From the NCBI GenBank assembly GCA_964435015.1, contig CAYSXP010000001.1, forward strand, positions 344 to 64,343: a DNA stretch of 64,000 bases, given 5' to 3'. How positions within the stretch are numbered: position 1 is the stretch's first letter; the number at the start of each line of letters is the position of its first letter. Below are positions 7,201 through 46,949 of this stretch, one piece after another. A program made the translations under genes and the position numbers. Below the pieces are notes generated by a model. It saw only the letters and a program-made list of their open reading frames with translations, was not told the DNA's origin and did not search any database. This DNA comes from an uncultured Rikenellaceae bacterium. GTDB lineage: Bacteria > Bacteroidota > Bacteroidia > Bacteroidales > VadinHA17.

Positions 7201-8061
7201 TGGACCACAGACAAGAAGAAGAATGACAGCATAAAGCAGCTTCTTCATAATTACATCATCAAGTACAAGGAGATTGACGGGGTCTACAAGCGCAAAAAAT
7301 ACACCATTACCATTGGCGATGAGCTGCCAGCAGGAATAGTCAGGCTTGCAAAGGTTTACGTTGCAAAGAAACGCAAGGTTAAAGTGGGTGACAAAATGGC
7401 TGGCCGTCATGGCAACAAGGGAATTGTTGCCAGGATCGTTCGCCAGGAAGATATGCCTTTCCTGGAAGACGGCACTCCTGTCGATATAGTTCTCAATCCC
7501 CTGGGCGTTCCTTCAAGGATGAACCTCGGTCAGATATATGAAACCGTCCTTGGCTGGGCCGGACAGAAGCTTGGCCTTCAGTTCGCAACTCCTATTTTCG
7601 ATGGAGCCACCATCGATCAGATTAATGAATACACTGAGAAGGCAGGATTGCCCAAATATGGTAAGACATATCTGTATGACGGAGGAACAGGTGAAAGGTT
7701 CGATCAGCCTGCAACCGTTGGCGTGATATACATGATGAAACTTGGCCACATGGTCGACGACAAAATGCATGCCCGTTCCATCGGGCCATACTCTCTTATC
7801 ACCCAGCAGCCTCTCGGAGGGAAGGCACAGTTCGGGGGACAGAGGTTTGGTGAAATGGAAGTATGGGCCCTAGAGGCATTCGGAGCGGCCCATATCCTTC
7901 AGGAGATACTTACCATCAAGTCGGACGACGTTATCGGAAGGGCCAAAGCCTATGAATCTATTGTAAAAGGAGAACCGCTGCCTCAACCGGGCATTCCGGA
8001 ATCGCTGAACGTGCTGCTGCACGAACTCAGAGGATTGGGCCTTAGTGTTATACTTGATTAA
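4252..8061 (+). CDS. rpoB: DNA-directed RNA polymerase subunit beta
   Basis: 1269 aa with conserved blocks [27 protein letters not shown] and [19 protein letters not shown]. Confidence 0.99.
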
Positions 8062-12793: not shown

Positions 12794-12820
12794 AAACTAA
12801 TTCCGTATCTGCAGAAAACT

Positions 12821-12886
12821 GATGGAATCCATATAGGGAGAACTATTAATCAGACAAATATTTGATCATCATGCATATGGATTCAC
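12821..12886 (+). repeat. Hairpin repeat, copy A0 (divergent member of the GATGRAAYCC family)
   Basis: GATGGAATCCATAT...(loop containing CAGACAAATA)...ATATGGATTCAC. There is a perfect 10-bp stem GAATCCATAT/ATATGGATTC, and the termini resemble copies A-E. Confidence 0.5.
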
Positions 12887-12937
12887 GGGCCGGCAGGTGA
12901 TCCGGGCATCAGGCCAGTAAAAGAAAAATTCGATACT

Positions 12938-13031
12938 GATGAAACCCGCATGACTGACCAGAAACACAAACACGAATGATTATCGCGTTCAATCATGTGG
13001 GGCTCCCTGTCCGAGGGGTCAGACAGGCATC
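12938..13031 (+). repeat. Hairpin repeat module, copy A (upstream of the DUF2520 gene)
   Basis: GATGAAACCCGCATGACTGA-[CCAGAAACACAAACACGAATGATTATCGCGT]-TCAATCATGTGGGG, then a GC-rich second hairpin and GGGGTCAGACAGGCATC. 12951-13000 matches the reverse complement of 26181-26230 at 47/50 positions (manual ungapped alignment). Confidence 0.8.
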
Positions 13032-13057
13032 AGACCGATAAAATAAATTATATACGT

Positions 13058-26117: not shown

Positions 26118-26147
26118 ACGTAAATGATTTGTTTTTTTATAAAGCCG

Positions 26148-26241
26148 GATGCCTGTCTGACCCCCCCCGGGCAGGCAACCACACATGATTGAACGCGATA
26201 ATTATTCGTGTTTGTGTTTCTGGTCAATCATGCGGATTCAT
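26148..26241 (-). repeat. Hairpin repeat module, copy B (upstream of the 4Fe-4S protein gene)
   Basis: The reverse complement reads ATGAATCCGCATGATTGA-[CCAGAAACACAAACACGAATAATTATCGCGT]-TCAATCATGTGTGG...GGGGTCAGACAGGCATC. It is almost identical to copy A and has the same orientation relative to its downstream gene. Confidence 0.8.
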
Positions 26242-28456: not shown

Positions 28457-30565
28457 TTATTCCAGGCCCCTGTTTTTCAGGAGGGCGTCTATTCCCGGCT
28501 CTTTTCCCCTGAAAGCCATATACATGTCGAGGGGGTCGCGGGTGCCGCCCCTGGATAGTATTTCCTTCTCAAATCTCGATGCCACATCCCTGTTGAAGAT
28601 GTCACCTGTTTCCCTGAAAGCGAGAAAAGCATCGGCGTCAAGCATTTCGCTCCAGTAGTAGCTGTAGTATCCTGCAGCGTATCCCGAACTCCAGATATGA
28701 TTGAAATAGGTCGATCTGTATCTTGGTTTGATCTCATCCGGCAATCCGTATTTATCCATGGCTTTTTTTTCGAACTGCCTGATATCGATATCGGCTGGCT
28801 CGGTAATTGTGTGGTACTCCATGTCGAGAAGAGCAGCAGCAAGAAACTCGACTGTTGTAAATCCCGTGTTGAATTTGCCTGCCCTGTCGAGTTTTTCCAC
28901 AATTTCTGCAGGAATAACCTCGCCGGTCAGGTAATGCTTTGCATATACCTGCAGCACTTCGGGTTCGAGGACCCAGTGCTCCATAATCTGGGAAGGAAGC
29001 TCTACAAAATCGCGCGGTACGGAAGTGCCCGATACACCCGGATAGGTGGAATTCGAAAGAAGCTGGTGCAGTGCATGTCCGAATTCATGGAACAGTGTAC
29101 TCGCTTCATCGGCAGTGAGCAGTGAAGGTTTGTCAGCCCCGGGTGGTGTTGAGTTGGTGACCATTGTGACAACAGGTGTTATCATTTTACCGTTTATGTC
29201 ACGACTCTGCCCTCTCATGGCCCCGCACCAGGCTCCTGCTCTTTTGGATTCCCTGGGATAGTTGTCGATCATCAGGATGCCCATGTGCTTTCCGTCCCTG
29301 GTTACTTCATAGGTAACAACATCCGGATGGTATACGGGAATATCGTTGCGGACACTGAATGTAAGATTGTACAGCCTCTCAGCAACATAAAACATACCTT
29401 CAATCACATTGTCTATCCTGAAGTAGGGTCTTGTTATCTCGTCATCAAGGTCGTACTTTTCCTTTTTTATCTTTTCGGCATAGTACCACCAGTCCCAGGG
29501 CGCCAGCTTGAATTGTCCGCCTTCTCTGTTGATGATCTCCTGCATGGCCTTAACTTCAGTCTTTGCCGCGGGTATTGCCGCATTCCAGACCTGACCAAGG
29601 AAATCCATGACCCTTTCCGGTGTTTTAGCCATGCTTTTTTCCAGTGCAAAACCGGCATATGTTCTGTATCCCAGGATCTTTGACCTTTCGAGCCTGAGCC
29701 TTGCTATCCGGGCGATGATTGATTTGTTGTCCCTTTCATTGTCATTATCACCTTTCATGAAGTAGGCTGTAAACAGCTTTTCCCTCAGTTTTCGATTTTC
29801 CGCATACTTCAGAAACGGCTCCATTATCGGGTACTGGATTGTAAAAACCCATTTCCCGTCCATATTCATGTTTTTTGCCAGTGCTGCTGCCTGTTCAACA
29901 ATACCATCAGGCAGGCCTGCAAGATCCTCACGCCTGTCAATAACAAGCCTGAATGCATTTGTCTCCGCAAGGAGATTCTGGCCAAACTGAACAGACAGAA
30001 GTGACAGTTCTTCATTTAACTTCCGCAGTTTTGCCTTGTCGTCCTGCGACAGTGCTGCTCCGCTCCTCACAAATCCCCTGTAGGTATCTTCAAGAACCAT
30101 TCTTTCCTCTTCCGTGAGCCCGAACCTGTCGCGGTTCTCATAAACCGTCCTGACTTTCAGAAAAAGAGTGTCATTGAGATTGATATCATCCCTGTGCCTG
30201 GCTGACAGAGGAGCTATTTCCCTGTTTATTGCCTGCAATGAGTCATTTGTATGAGCCGAGTTAAGTGATCCGAAAATCCTGCTCACCCTGGTCAGCAGCT
30301 CTCCGCTGTATTCAAGTGCTTTTATCGTATTCCCGAAATCCGGCTCCACCGGATCGTCAATTATTCTTCTTACGGCCAGTTTCTGTTCCTCAAATCCTTT
30401 TAAAAAAGCAGGCATAAAGTGCCGGGCTTTTATCAGATCGAAAGGCGGCACTTCAAACGGAGTATTAAATTCATTTAACAGGGGATTGTCAGATTTCTCC
30501 GTTTTTTTGCACGATGCAGATATCATAATCATAATTCCAATTAGTAATAAGGCTTTTTTCATCAT
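28457..30565 (-). CDS. dcp: M3 family peptidyl-dipeptidase
   Basis: 702 aa with a lipoprotein-type signal (ISASC), the zinc motif HEFGHALH, and length and sequence typical of Dcp/oligopeptidase A. Confidence 0.88.
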   Translation of the reverse strand: MMKKALLLIGIMIMISASCKKTEKSDNPLLNEFNTPFEVPPFDLIKARHFMPAFLKGFEEQKLAVRRIIDDPVEPDFGNTIKALEYSGELLTRVSRIFGSLNSAHTNDSLQAINREIAPLSARHRDDINLNDTLFLKVRTVYENRDRFGLTEEERMVLEDTYRGFVRSGAALSQDDKAKLRKLNEELSLLSVQFGQNLLAETNAFRLVIDRREDLAGLPDGIVEQAAALAKNMNMDGKWVFTIQYPIMEPFLKYAENRKLREKLFTAYFMKGDNDNERDNKSIIARIARLRLERSKILGYRTYAGFALEKSMAKTPERVMDFLGQVWNAAIPAAKTEVKAMQEIINREGGQFKLAPWDWWYYAEKIKKEKYDLDDEITRPYFRIDNVIEGMFYVAERLYNLTFSVRNDIPVYHPDVVTYEVTRDGKHMGILMIDNYPRESKRAGAWCGAMRGQSRDINGKMITPVVTMVTNSTPPGADKPSLLTADEASTLFHEFGHALHQLLSNSTYPGVSGTSVPRDFVELPSQIMEHWVLEPEVLQVYAKHYLTGEVIPAEIVEKLDRAGKFNTGFTTVEFLAAALLDMEYHTITEPADIDIRQFEKKAMDKYGLPDEIKPRYRSTYFNHIWSSGYAAGYYSYYWSEMLDADAFLAFRETGDIFNRDVASRFEKEILSRGGTRDPLDMYMAFRGKEPGIDALLKNRGLE

Positions 30566-30590
30566 AATATAATTTTGATTTTAACGGTAT

Positions 30591-30660
30591 GATGGAACCC
30601 ACATGTTGATAAAATTATATTTATATGTGTTTGTGTTAGTAATAACATGTGGGTTTCATC
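30591..30660 (-). repeat. Hairpin repeat, copy C (immediately upstream of dcp)
   Basis: The reverse complement reads GATGAAACCCACATGTT-[ATTACTAACACAAACACATATAAATATAATTTTATC]-AACATGTGGGTTCCATC, a 17-bp stem with one mismatch. It ends 25 nt from the dcp ATG. Confidence 0.75.
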
Positions 30661-30685
30661 ATTTTATAATTTTTATTTTAATGGT

Positions 30686-30774
30686 ATGAAGCCTGCCTGA
30701 TTCCCCGTACAGGATACATGCATGTTGAAAATGATAAATTTGCGGTTTGGATTTTGCATACAGGCGGGTTTCAT
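30686..30774 (-). repeat. Hairpin repeat, copy D (tandem to C, divergent stem)
   Basis: The reverse complement reads ATGAAACCCGCCTG-[TATGCAAAATCCAAACCGCAAATTT...]-CAGGCAGGCTTCAT. The termini and CAAAC core match the family, but the CACATG/CATGTG stem segment is replaced by a complementary GCCTG/CAGGC pair. Confidence 0.6.
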
Positions 30775-30787
30775 TTTAAAATGGTTT

Positions 30788-30900
30788 GAGAAAGGTGAAA
30801 GTAAGAAGTAAAAAACAAAAGACAAAGGATAAAAGTCAGAAGACAAAAGTAAAAAGAAACACAGAACCGTAAACAGGAAAACAGAAACGGCTGAGAACCT
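30788..30900 (+). repeat. Low-complexity A/G-rich tract
   Basis: GAGAAAGGTGAAAGTAAGAAGTAAAAAACAAAAGACAAAGGATAAAAGTCAGAAGACAAAAGTAAAAAGAAACACAGAACCGTAAACAGGAAAACAGAAACGG. I count 7 T in 103 nt (30788-30890). Stops occur in all frames. Confidence 0.7.
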
Positions 30901-31425
30901 GCATGAGACCTGTTGTTATAATTAACCCCGATGAGCCGGTATTGCTAATTGACCATATAGAAAAAAGAAAAGGAAAGATAGTTGGGAGTTATCTTTCCTT
31001 CATTAACCTAAACCTGATCGTAGAATTTGGCCGAACGGCCTATAAAGAAATCTTATATATTTTATGTTATTTTTCCTTCCGGAAAATAACCGTAATATCA
31101 AAGAACCTATTTTTCATCTCTCGTTACACCATATAGACGTACGAGACTGCCAAATTGTTGCATAAACCATTGTTAATGTTATGTTAATTTTTGTGATTTA
31201 TTTTCCTGCATCAGCAGAGTCGGTGGTAATTTTTGCATAACTTTCTGCATTATAAGTAATTATGCTTACAGGTATGAGACACCGGTTCATGATGCTGCGG
31301 TTAGGGCGCCATCTTTACTGCTGCCTTATGTTTTATTCCCTGTGATTTGCGGGAAAGACCAGCTGCGTCGCCCCGTTCTGCATCCTTCCTCATTTTTTCT
31401 TCATTCAACCAGTCGTTTGGATTCC

Positions 31426-38160: not shown

Positions 38161-38188
38161 ACCCTTAAACCCTTAAACCCTTAAACCC
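38161..38188 (+). repeat. Tandem 8-mer (ACCCTTAA) x3 plus a partial unit, directly upstream of the MFS gene
   Basis: ACCCTTAAACCCTTAAACCCTTAAACCC read directly from the sequence; it ends 8 nt before ATG 38197. Confidence 0.9.
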
Positions 38189-39351: not shown

Positions 39352-39594
39352 TGTCATGCGGATTTGCCGGGGCAGTGGCATCGCGGCGGATTTTCGTCCT
39401 GTCTTTGCATCCGCACTCAATTATAAAATTAAACCGGACATGACGAACGAGGGTTATCAGATTAGCTTATTTGAGATGAAACCCGGATGAGTGTATTTTA
39501 AATGCAGGCACATTAAGGATGAAAATTGTTGTCATTTGCAGTTTCTCCTTTATCTGCAGGGCGGGAGAACAACAAATAAAATCAAAATCATACT

Positions 39595-40866
39595 ATGATG
39601 AAACAGAATGAATTTGGCAGGCGCAGGTTCCTTAAGAAGAGCACGGCTGCCCTTTTTGCTTTTACCATTGTTCCCAGGCATATTCTGGGAGGGACGGGCT
39701 ACACGGCTCCTTCCGACCAGCTCACCAAGGGAATTATCGGAGTTGGCGGCATGGGCCGCGGGCACATTGAATATGAGGGGACGCGGCTTCTTGCAGTCTG
39801 TGATGTGGATAAAAATCATCTGGCCCTGGCAATTGCGCAGGCAGGCGGAAAAGTTGACGCTTACCACGATTTCAGGGAGCTGCTGATGCGGCCTGATATT
39901 GATATAGTGCATATTGCGACGCCTCCGCACTGGCATGGCATTATTGCCAAAATGGCTGCAGAAGCCGGCAAGGACATATGGTGTGAAAAACCGATGACCA
40001 GGACGATAGGCGAGGGGATAAAACTGGTGAAGGCGGTTCAGGAACACGGAAGGATGTTCAGGCTGAACACATGGTTCAGGTTCAAGGACCAGTTCTACGG
40101 CCTGGGATCAACCGTTAAGCCGCTTAAGAAGCTTATTGACAGCGGTGTGCTTGGATGGCCGCTGAAAGTAACCGTCAGCGGTACCACGGGATATGACTGG
40201 AAATTCTTCTGGAGCGGCCTGCACAACCTCACGCCGATGCCTGTTCCTCCCGAGCTTGATTATGATTTCTGGCTCGGCCCCGCACCATATAAGCATTATA
40301 ATCCGGAAAGGGTGCACAACAAGTTCAGGGGATACTGGGACTATGACGGAGGCGGGCTGGGAGACATGGGGCAGCATTATCTCGACCCGGTGCAATACAT
40401 GCTCGGCGAGGATGATACGGGACCGGTATCGGTTGAAATAGATGCTCCCCAGCAGCATTATGATGCAGTGGGATCGTGGAGAAGAATAACCTACACCTAC
40501 GCCGACGGATGCAAAATAATACTCGATGGCGAGAACCGCGATAAGGACGCAGCATACATTGAAGGACCCCATGGTAAAATTTACAGGGGGTTCAGAACCG
40601 ACATAAAAGATGTACACAGGCTGATCGATTCCCTTCCCGATCCTGAACCTCAGATAGTGACGTTTTCCGAATCGGTCAGAACAAGGAAGAAATTTGCCCT
40701 TAACGAAGCCAACGGGCACAGGTCGTGTTCGATAGTCAATCTTGGGATTGTAGCTTTGCGGCTCGGAAGAAACCTGAAATATGATCCTGTGAAGCAGGAG
40801 TTCATTGATGATGAAGGTGCCAACAGGCTGATAAACCAACCCATGAGGGGAGAGTGGAAAATGTGA
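39595..40866 (+). CDS. Gfo/Idh/MocA family oxidoreductase with a twin-arginine signal
   Basis: MMKQNEFGRRRFLKKSTAALFAF is a TAT motif, and GIIGVGGMGRGH is a Rossmann fold. Length is 423 aa. Confidence 0.85.
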   Translation: MMKQNEFGRRRFLKKSTAALFAFTIVPRHILGGTGYTAPSDQLTKGIIGVGGMGRGHIEYEGTRLLAVCDVDKNHLALAIAQAGGKVDAYHDFRELLMRPDIDIVHIATPPHWHGIIAKMAAEAGKDIWCEKPMTRTIGEGIKLVKAVQEHGRMFRLNTWFRFKDQFYGLGSTVKPLKKLIDSGVLGWPLKVTVSGTTGYDWKFFWSGLHNLTPMPVPPELDYDFWLGPAPYKHYNPERVHNKFRGYWDYDGGGLGDMGQHYLDPVQYMLGEDDTGPVSVEIDAPQQHYDAVGSWRRITYTYADGCKIILDGENRDKDAAYIEGPHGKIYRGFRTDIKDVHRLIDSLPDPEPQIVTFSESVRTRKKFALNEANGHRSCSIVNLGIVALRLGRNLKYDPVKQEFIDDEGANRLINQPMRGEWKM

Positions 40867-46571: not shown

Positions 46572-46695
46572 GGTATGTTTTCAGATTAGCAAACAAAGAT
46601 CACAAATAATTCCGGTAAATGTTGCATCATTGGTTTTTTTGGAATGTTAGTTATATCCATTTTAATTATCTTTCGGCAAATAATTTCATTTTCAA

Positions 46696-46740
46696 ATGAC
46701 ATCCGCATGATTTTTCTCAGGAAGGAATACATGAGGATCC
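46696..46740 (+). repeat. Short hairpin repeat, copy E2
   Basis: ATGACATCCGCATGA-[N19]-CATGAGGATCC. The stem ATCCGCATG/CATGAGGAT pairs at 8 of 9 positions. The 5' arm is nearly identical to that of copy B (ATGAATCCGCATGA). Confidence 0.45.
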
Positions 46741-46844
46741 TGTTCATTATCAACCGGGCCCGCCGGGCCGTCGGAGACAGCAACGTGCGGTTTTCCCGTT
46801 TTCCGGGGGGCAGGCGCCCGGCTTTAATAAACACATTATTTACC

Positions 46845-46907
46845 GATGAAACCCACATGATACAAAATCACAAACAAGCATGAAAATAAAATTCATGTGG
46901 GTTCCAT
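46845..46907 (+). repeat. Hairpin repeat, copy E (upstream of proC)
   Basis: GATGAAACCCACATGA-[TACAAAATCACAAACAAGCATGAAAATAAAAT]-TCATGTGGGTTCCAT. The 15-nt 5' terminus and 14-nt 3' terminus are identical to copy C. It ends 42 nt before ATG 46950. Confidence 0.75.
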
Positions 46908-46949
46908 TCGAACCACTTAATCTTCAGTAGTATATTAATTTATTTTCAC

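Follow-up and report, generated by a model that had tools for sequence, protein, structure and literature searches.

Transposons of the IS200/IS605 family insert 3' of a short target, have their right end in a similar sequence and make use of pairing between a guide and the cleavage site (PMC3201880, PMC5027513). Here we describe a family of small hairpin-bearing repeats that can be compared with them, found in a 64,000-nucleotide stretch (hereafter the window) of contig CAYSXP010000001.1 (assembly GCA_964435015.1, positions 344 to 64,343, forward strand) from an uncultured Rikenellaceae bacterium of the Bacteroidales. We consider it probable that these hairpins are non-autonomous, high-copy mobile DNA of uncultured Bacteroidales that inserts in a single orientation at ATGAAA start codons and stacks into arrays. 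The repeats are multi-copy, non-coding and polymorphic for presence or absence at orthologous sites, as is generally the case for non-autonomous mobile elements. They belong to the broad kind of small hairpin-bearing interspersed repeats that comprises REP, PATE and MITEs (miniature inverted-repeat transposable elements), and fail the defining tests of classical MITEs, REPs and integron attC sites.

Several described families are alike in part. REP, BIME and REPIN-RAYT sequences are, like the element, high-copy intergenic palindromes with compensatory structure that are probably moved in trans by a single-copy enzyme. REPs are 20-40 nt long, GC-rich, marked by GTAG, arranged as inverted pairs and located mostly 3' of genes, whereas the element is AT-rich, about 100 nt long and without GTAG, forms direct arrays and abuts start codons, and no RAYT homologue was found in the 1.5 Mb of loci collected here. 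The Correia elements of Neisseria and the enterobacterial ERIC/IRU sequences are small co-transcribed repeats near genes that form RNA hairpins and can change the expression of their neighbours. They have true terminal inverted repeats (TIRs) and TA duplications, occur in either orientation, and none is tied to a start codon. The element is likewise small, close to genes and present in transcripts, but it lacks TIRs, has one orientation and is bound to start codons. MIRUs, the mycobacterial interspersed repetitive units, are tandem intergenic units with one orientation relative to transcription, whose ends coincide with flanking stop and start codons; these minisatellites have no long hairpin, and homing to start codons across the genome is not known for them. 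One subfamily of the element (type 1) resembles them in having an open 31-codon frame that ends in UGAUG, but this frame is not conserved between subfamilies. We know of no other small bacterial repeat family with the start codon itself as target.

Units and the start codons they abut

Species-representative genomes were scanned by exact pattern, and loci were chosen by the hairpin arms alone, so that tail and gene context are unbiased. At least 117 loci were obtained, nearly all from metagenome-assembled genomes (MAGs) of uncultured Bacteroidales of digesters, biofilms and sediments; a few matches are chance matches in GC-rich Proteobacteria. About 30 or more representative genomes are present among 80 of the at least 117 loci, and identical master sequences recur across genomes. 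A profile census of loci and window gave 161 non-redundant copies, 124 of them classifiable. In 91 cases the unit abuts an open reading frame (ORF) of at least 70 codons that starts exactly at the terminal ATG of the unit, in 21 it abuts the next unit and in 12 neither. About 93% of the ORF junctions read ATGAAA. Of the 45 genes in the window, 11 have ATGAAA as their start, including all five that bear an element; about half of the ATGAAA-start genes here are occupied.

The unit is asymmetric, 95-125 nt long, and starts with ATGAAACCCACATG. This start is paired with ...CATGTGGGTTCCAT in a hairpin (P1) of 14-15 bp that keeps one conserved A.C mismatch and has the conserved ACACAAACAC in its loop. 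After an optional GC mini-hairpin there follows an A/T-rich tail, which ends in NNN directly 5' of the ATGAAA of the next gene or next unit. The consensus reads ATGAAACCCACATG-(loop with ACACAAACAC ... TATAAT)-CATGTGGGTTCCATCAG-ACCATTAAAATAAAAATTATATACTG, then immediately ATGAAA, and when copies are compared side by side, conservation begins sharply at the 5' ATG and stops after the 3' ATGAAA. The earlier note, which had proposed a TIR-bounded miniature element or an RNA leader from five copies (A to E), placed these boundaries differently. The leading G of its 'GATG' terminus is flank, as the preceding base varies, and the unit does not end at the hairpin but includes a conserved tail of 28-54 nt up to the gene ATG. 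It is not TIR-bounded either: the right arm of the inverted repeat is internal and the 3' end is an unrelated A/T-rich tail. The proposal of a miniature element with strict insertion polarity is supported, and the note was also right about the CA-rich core of the loop, the constant orientation and the position of the ATGAAACCC arm distal to the gene.

Loop and tail distinguish the subfamilies, which are type 1, type 2, the long forms and an E-type whose tail is its own. Long forms, to which A, B and D belong, have an extra GC hairpin inserted in TTC^CATC. The 3' arm and the ATG are set apart by discrete distances, 28, 30 or 33 nt for short forms and 53-54 nt for long ones; for the window copies the distances to the start codon are 28 (C), 42 (E), 52 (A) and 53 nt (B). 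A 22-nt GC mini-hairpin (TCCCGCTTAGGCGGGACAGGCT) at 2255-2276 of locus L031 is the sole difference from a near-identical orthologous unit in L043, the flanking proteins being 97.6% identical, and similar mini-hairpins lie inside the loops of other copies (L012 around 5380; L116 around 7480-7560). One possibility is that these mini-hairpins are a second micro-element nested in the first; another is that short and long forms are converted into each other.

The positions and termini of the five copies A to E were found as previously described by reading the window, which holds eight copies in all, in three arrays (A0-A, D-C, E0-E) and two singletons (B, F):

12822-12938, plus strand: A0, a degenerate long-form copy, distal in the A0-A array
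12939-13057, plus strand: A, a long form that abuts the ATGAAA (13058) of a DUF2520/Rossmann-like gene
26118-26241, minus strand: B, a long form that abuts the ATGAAA (26117-26112) of a 4Fe-4S ferredoxin-domain gene
30557-30562, minus strand: ATGAAA start of dcp (peptidase M3), the target hexamer, whose AUG pairs with the CAU of the C 3' arm in a second helix, P2
30563-30659, minus strand: C, an intact short form, gene-proximal in the D-C array (profile E = 1e-23)
30590-30563, minus strand: tail of C
30605-30591, minus strand: P1 3' arm of C, CATGTGGGTTCCATC
30659-30646, minus strand: P1 5' arm of C
30660-30774, minus strand: D, a decayed long form, distal in the D-C array (profile E = 1.3e-8)
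39476-39597, plus strand: F, a strongly decayed copy that precedes the ATGAAA (39598) of a GFO/IDH/MocA oxidoreductase gene
46696-46845 (approximate), plus strand: E0, tentatively a decayed B-like long form, distal to E
46846-46949, plus strand: E, an E-type unit that precedes the ATGAAA (46950) of proC

A0 and F came to light by profile search and E0 by comparison with a sister species. A0, matched by nhmmer at 12818-12944 (E = 2.7e-4), has the stem GGAATCCATAT/ATATGGATTC, and its tail GGCATCAGGCCAGTAAAAGAAAAATTCGATACTG runs directly into the ATG of A. The latter consists of P1 (ATGAAACCCGCATGA.../...TCATGTGGGG), the extra GC hairpin (CCTGTCCGAGGGGTCAGACAGG), CATCAG and then the tail, and is 89% alike to B over 76 nt. 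The loop of C carries ACACAAACAC and its P2 is CAUCAU/AUGAUG; the tail of D, ACCATTAAAATAAAAATTATAAAATG, directly meets the ATG of C. F is supported by a 15-mer match with one mismatch at 39475 and a profile E = 0.007; what remains of it is the 5' arm ATGAAACCCGGATG and an intact tail AAATAAAATCAAAATCATACTATG, with no hairpin left (fold z = 0.05). The probable copy E0 keeps a 5' arm, ATGACATCCGCATGA, matched at 46695 with three mismatches, and a tail, CAGGCGCCCGGCTTTAATAAACACATTATTTACCG, that read by eye resembles the tail of B; nhmmer did not find E0. E has hairpin arms as in the other copies and a tail of its own, TCGAACCACTTAATCTTCAGTAGTATATTAATTTATTTTCAC.

The 15-mer GATGAAACCCRCATG, with up to three mismatches, occurs 18 times in the window against 4.6 expected, and none of 100 shuffles reached 18. 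Single-strand folding compared with shuffled sequences gave z = -6.15 for C, -4.36 for E, -2.65 for A, -1.65 for B and -0.8 for D, the last being no better than chance. The density of about one copy per 8 kb implies hundreds of copies per genome, and the element accordingly adds structured 5' untranslated regions (UTRs) to hundreds of genes. A mechanical ORF list opens gene A at an ATG inside the hairpin 3' arm (12995) and gene B at 26186; in-frame ATGs of the element can mislead start-codon calling.

Filled and empty start codons

Three syntenic relatives were compared with the window: sp2, with about 90% amino-acid identity (loci L118/L200/L204); sp3, GCA_964611835.1, with 87% (L205); and sp4, GCA_964613785.1, with 84% (L206). 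The start codons are occupied as follows (^ marks the junction):

Ferredoxin gene start: long-form B in the window; a different, E-type unit in sp2; empty in sp3 and sp4 (...aaaaacagag^ATGAAAAGAGAC)
dcp start: D and C in the window; D only in sp2; empty in sp3 and sp4 (...gaatcgaaa^ATGAAAAAAGCA)
DUF2520 gene start: A0 and A in the window; A0, A and an E-type unit in sp2; beyond the locus end in sp3 and sp4

C is thus missing at the orthologous site in all three sp2 loci and the entire D-C array in sp3 and sp4, while the E-type unit of sp2 at the DUF2520 gene lies exactly between the tail of A and the gene ATG. In other lineages L128 is filled and L124 and L129 are empty, and there are five further filled/empty pairs. 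Filled and empty junctions fall exactly at ATGAAA, and the protein N-termini keep their length across them, which means that units target the ATGAAA of the gene itself and leave it in place. These comparisons show that insertion is specific for ATGAAA start codons and has one orientation, and that the gene keeps both its start codon and its length.

The arrays have an internal order. Of 41 adjacent pairs, 31 have the proximal copy nearer to the consensus than its distal neighbour (p = 5e-5), so new units are added on the gene side. Comparison of the window with sp2 gives identities of 71%, 58% and 68% for the old orthologous copies A, A0 (L204) and D, and of 54-67% for four-fold degenerate sites. 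Judged from these alignments, the decay of old copies appears neutral-like. Of F only the tail is conserved in sp2. E, in contrast, shares 90-96% identity with three copies of sp2, which lie at the start codons of proC, the ferredoxin gene and the DUF2520 gene. Arrays of mixed subfamilies (L026, L040, L095) exclude simple local duplication. Taken together, the arrays show that older units are pushed distally and decay neutrally while new ones come to lie next to the gene, which gives the mixed-subfamily arrays. Such arrays are potential markers of strains or lineages among the Bacteroidales of anaerobic digesters.

Since ATGAAA stands on both sides of every unit, it could be read as a 6-bp target-site duplication left by a DDE transposase that moves a classical MITE in trans by cut-and-paste. 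The small size, the non-coding sequence, the copy number and the presence/absence polymorphism would also be in keeping with this. However, with ATGAAA taken as the duplication, the ends CCCACATG... and ...ATATACTG or ...TTTTCAC are not inverted repeats. Moreover, the 5' ATGAAA is structurally part of P1, where pairs 16-73 and 17-72 are essentially invariant, and a deviation in one hexamer, 5' or 3', never has its counterpart in the other (B, L001, L025, L087). A plain MITE, as considered in the earlier note, is not supported: apart from the specific ATGAAA there is no target-site duplication, and the 1.5 Mb of loci yielded no autonomous partner. We regard this explanation as very unlikely. 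The same direct repeats could have allowed a reverse transcriptase or a replication error to copy a leader module through ATGAAA microhomology at both ends, the more so as the element is always co-oriented, and so co-transcribed, with its gene. Six bases of homology are very short, there is no reverse transcriptase nearby, and the strict conservation of arms and loop suggests recognition by a protein rather than passive copying; spread through RNA or template switching is therefore highly improbable.

DNA metagenomes were also consulted. All four carry A0/A and B, and their contigs break at C/D; repeat-derived contigs diverge exactly after the dcp ATGAAA hexamer, with loose ends at 30554-30557. 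In one run (X1) contig depth is up to about 8-fold higher over C/D (window 30228-30878). MAG contigs often end inside the element (L005, L006, L018, L029, L045, L082), and assemblies of these Bacteroidales are systematically broken by the family.

Junction-spanning pairing and possible mechanisms of insertion

The helix P2 pairs CAU+NNN of the P1 3' arm with NNN+AUG and so spans the 3' junction. In 51 diverse units 89% of the P1 cells and 96% of the P2 cells are paired, and shifted registers drop to 22-47%; the observed P2 covariation was reached by none of 500 shuffles. Pair 83-110 is AU in 42 sequences, CG in 7 and UA in 1, and pair 84-109 is GC in 25 and UA in 17. With CAUGUG/CACAUG in the E-type and CAUUC/GAAUG in L111 there are at least five pairing states in all. 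Compensation must have occurred independently at least four times to give this record. The arms of P1 are conserved mainly in sequence, and rare variants are compensated, by two double changes relative to the consensus in each of A0 and L012. The claim that pairing is kept by different sequences is supported, by these two copies and by P2, but it does not stand for D: its 'compensatory' GCCTG/CAGGC came from mis-homology, as alignment with A and B puts CAGGCAGGC in the long-form GC hairpin and not in the P1 3' arm. The conserved A.C mismatch lies four pairs from the stem base in 82 of 105 copies and recurs in the P2 extension. Sporadic P1 mismatches on the sense strand are G.U in 42 cases and A.C in 13.

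Such pairing may also be read as that of a cis-regulatory RNA leader kept by host selection, with P1 and P2 as alternative structures of the 5' UTR. The CAU would pair either with the decoy 5' AUG of the unit, leaving the gene AUG free, or with the gene AUG, which would be sequestered, and translation would be tuned in this way in Bacteroidales, which lack Shine-Dalgarno sequences. P1 and P2 indeed compete for one CAUC, and P2 covaries and includes the start codon. In the predicted fold of the full-length RNA, P1 forms and leaves tail and AUG single-stranded, and P2 is predicted to form only without the 5' arm. The excess of G.U mismatches on the sense strand points the same way, and metatranscriptome contigs, at low depth and as assembled contigs without 5' ends, cover the dcp 5' end together with C and D. 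On the other hand, the downstream genes are functionally unrelated (DUF2520, ferredoxin-domain protein, peptidase M3, ProC, GFO/IDH/MocA oxidoreductase), the sister-species orthologues have no element or a different subfamily, and the old copies decay in a neutral-like manner. These same three points speak against the gene-specific leader under host selection envisaged in the earlier note. Furthermore, loops and tails are near-identical over dozens of unrelated loci and genomes, which is typical of recent transposition and not of independently maintained regulators, and distal array members can have no role at a start codon. Rfam gave no family match, neither at the gathering threshold over the whole window nor at E <= 10 for the locus, where only chance miRNA-like hairpin matches appeared. 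We find a host-selected leader improbable as the explanation of the family. An inserted element is necessarily located in the 5' UTR, so a side effect at the RNA level is possible, and a secondary translational role is made possible by the modelled competition between P1 and P2, taken with the G.U excess, and by the similarity of the E copies at proC in two species.

The copy at proC deserves separate mention. E (46846-46949) is 94% identical between species (L200 15990-16094), and the adjacent E0 is only about two-thirds identical in the alignment. This could mean that E has been exapted, or that independent recent insertions took place at one start codon. An RNA leader under selection would be in line with the 94% against about 60% at neutral sites, but the case for purifying selection is weakened by the paralogous E-type copies at other sites, which are equally similar. 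Independent recent insertions of an active E-type explain the similarity equally well.

For the mobile element that we favour, the covarying, junction-spanning P2 suggests hairpin-dependent single-strand insertion. The three bases at the end of the tail and the next ATG(AAA) would pair with CAU+NNN of the P1 3' arm. If the ends of a unit were joined, in a circle or in tandem, P2 would become a basal extension of P1, and the element boundaries would lie inside one long imperfect palindrome, CTG^ATGAAACCCACATG ... CATGTGGGTTCCATCAG, the joined-end form of which would read CTGATGAAACCCACATG...CATGTGGGTTCCATCAG. This palindrome geometry, the lack of TIRs, the short asymmetric target, the conserved stem mismatch and a length of 95-125 nt, less than a double-strand circle would need, suggest an intermediate that is a folded single strand. 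It would be processed by a trans-acting enzyme, most likely an HUH/Y1 transposase of the IS200/IS605 kind, with an integron-integrase-like recombinase acting on the hairpin as the second candidate. The tail would supply the gene with a fresh, unstructured A/U-rich leader, so that insertions are tolerated. Precise insertion between leader and ATG, together with this new leader, could allow a very high copy number in a compact genome, apparently without killing genes.

Like IS200/IS605 elements and PATEs, which use Y1 HUH TnpA, the element has no terminal inverted repeats and apparently no classical target duplication. As in IS200/IS605, the hairpin is imperfect and a mismatch in it is conserved, insertion beside a short specific sequence has a strict orientation, and the far end is made of target-like sequence. 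Read antisense, both the target and the end of the element are TTTCAT (TTTCAT, element ... GGGTTTCAT), which would satisfy the IS200/IS605 rule, as a formal fit only. The pairing of hairpin foot and junction in P2 resembles the guide/cleavage-site pairing, but it comprises 6-9 bp and spans the junction, and the target is a gene start codon. This pairing may point to a simple rule by which single-strand insertion is targeted, and which could perhaps be reprogrammed.

The geometry is matched almost as well by an attC-like mechanism, in which a tyrosine recombinase would act on the folded hairpin as on an integron cassette, with the crossover at the core ATGAAA in the stem and gene-start ATGAAA hexamers as secondary targets. 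As in attC, the folded imperfect palindrome has a stem split by the unit boundary, a conserved mismatch near the stem base and a core sequence in common with the target, and the arrays have one orientation, mixed origin and the newest unit at one end. In contrast to attC, the arms are ATGAAAC/GTTCCAT and do not fit the R-box RYYYAAC/GTTRRRY, and in contrast to integrons the units are about 100 nt long without an ORF and face hundreds of dispersed gene-start targets where integrons have a single attI platform. An integrase gene was not noticed in the loci, in which no systematic search for one was made. We consider this mechanism unlikely.

A third enzyme is brought in by a Lentimicrobium MAG (L014 3261-4830, L056), where an IS110-family transposase gene (PF01548 + PF02371) is followed about 230 nt downstream by a hairpin-and-tail variant, which lies within a larger repeat common to two contigs that extends at least 190 nt upstream and 330 nt downstream. 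IS110/IS1111 elements home to repeated palindromes, so that a bridge-RNA recombinase of this family might mobilise or target the hairpins. However, only one of the at least 117 loci shows the association, the hairpin sits inside the insertion sequence, in its 3' non-coding part, where ordinary insertion explains it equally well, and a double-strand circle of about 100 bp is implausible. To an involvement of IS110 we give very little credence.

Several observations weigh against a mobile element of the kind we favour. No transposase or recombinase is linked to it. In the loci the hairpin arms flank no coding region, no TnpA was found, and searches with E. coli RayT (tblastn, phmmer) did not find a RAYT/Y1-like ORF, the best match, inside ilvC, being due to chance. 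IS200/IS605 elements normally have a hairpin at each end, whereas here there is one large hairpin, and the other end has only the weak P2 of 6 bp with a loop of about 25 nt. Both strands carry elements within 64 kb, and no replication-strand bias is visible. The G.U excess fits a folded sense strand or an RNA better than it fits the antisense reading. The four DNA metagenomes yielded neither an excision product nor a strain-level empty allele, and the similarity of E at proC could mean host-level selection on that copy.

A more far-reaching proposal, which we put forward tentatively and with considerable doubt, is that the family represents a new class of start-codon-homing mobile DNA. It would recognise ATGAAA by pairing with its own anti-start UUCCAU/CAU, insert as a folded single strand without disrupting the gene, and bring along a ready-made leader with a P1/P2 switch that is sometimes exapted, possibly at proC. 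The arrays would then preserve the order in which units arrived, the latest being beside the gene.

Distribution and neighbouring observations

Annotated plasmids and phages gave no match to the element, and IMG/VR gave only two, so the element is not phage-borne. A literature search for the arm sequences returned no paper containing them, and no description of the element was found in the literature on MITE, Bacteroidetes and start-codon concepts; the Minerva preprint on hairpin arrays concerns unrelated systems. As far as can be established, the element is previously undescribed, and start-codon homing and cassette-like arrays are new. That it has not been described earlier is probably because all real matches are in uncultured lineages.

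In type-1 units (e.g. L010 7017-7112) the frame from the 5' ATG is open for 31-33 codons, and its stop, the TGA of cTGATGaaa, overlaps the gene ATG (UGAUG). A leader peptide was rejected, as only type-1-like units have this frame open and in several subfamilies a stop comes after 4-8 codons. A portable Bacteroidetes promoter was likewise rejected, with TAnnTTTG on the sense strand in only 4 of 142 units, and the apparent TTGCAG-17-TATAAT of type 1 is not conserved. On the antisense strand TAATTTTG is a perfect Bacteroidetes -7 promoter box pointing from the gene into the hairpin; it is confined to the ...ATCAAAATTATA... tail variant, found in the tail of C (window 30566-30590) and in 28 of the 142 units in loci. 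An invertible promoter (inverton) was also discarded: the orientation of the loop relative to tail and gene is constant in all copies.

Upstream of dcp, between D and a radical-SAM gene (31342), lies a conserved region resembling a small RNA (window about 30962-31195, minus strand). It reads ...aacattaacaa...gcaaca...cgtctata ... GGCCGTTCGGCCAAATTCTACGATCAGGTTTAGGTTAATGAAGGAAAGATAACTCCCAACTATCTTTCC, followed by a T-run resembling an intrinsic terminator. Many dcp loci (L118, L123, L125, L126, L129-L135) have the 3' part of this region in conserved form, and the region has no Rfam match. Finally, at 38161-38188 of the window, CCCTTAAA is repeated three times in tandem directly upstream of the ATG of an MFS transporter gene (38197).

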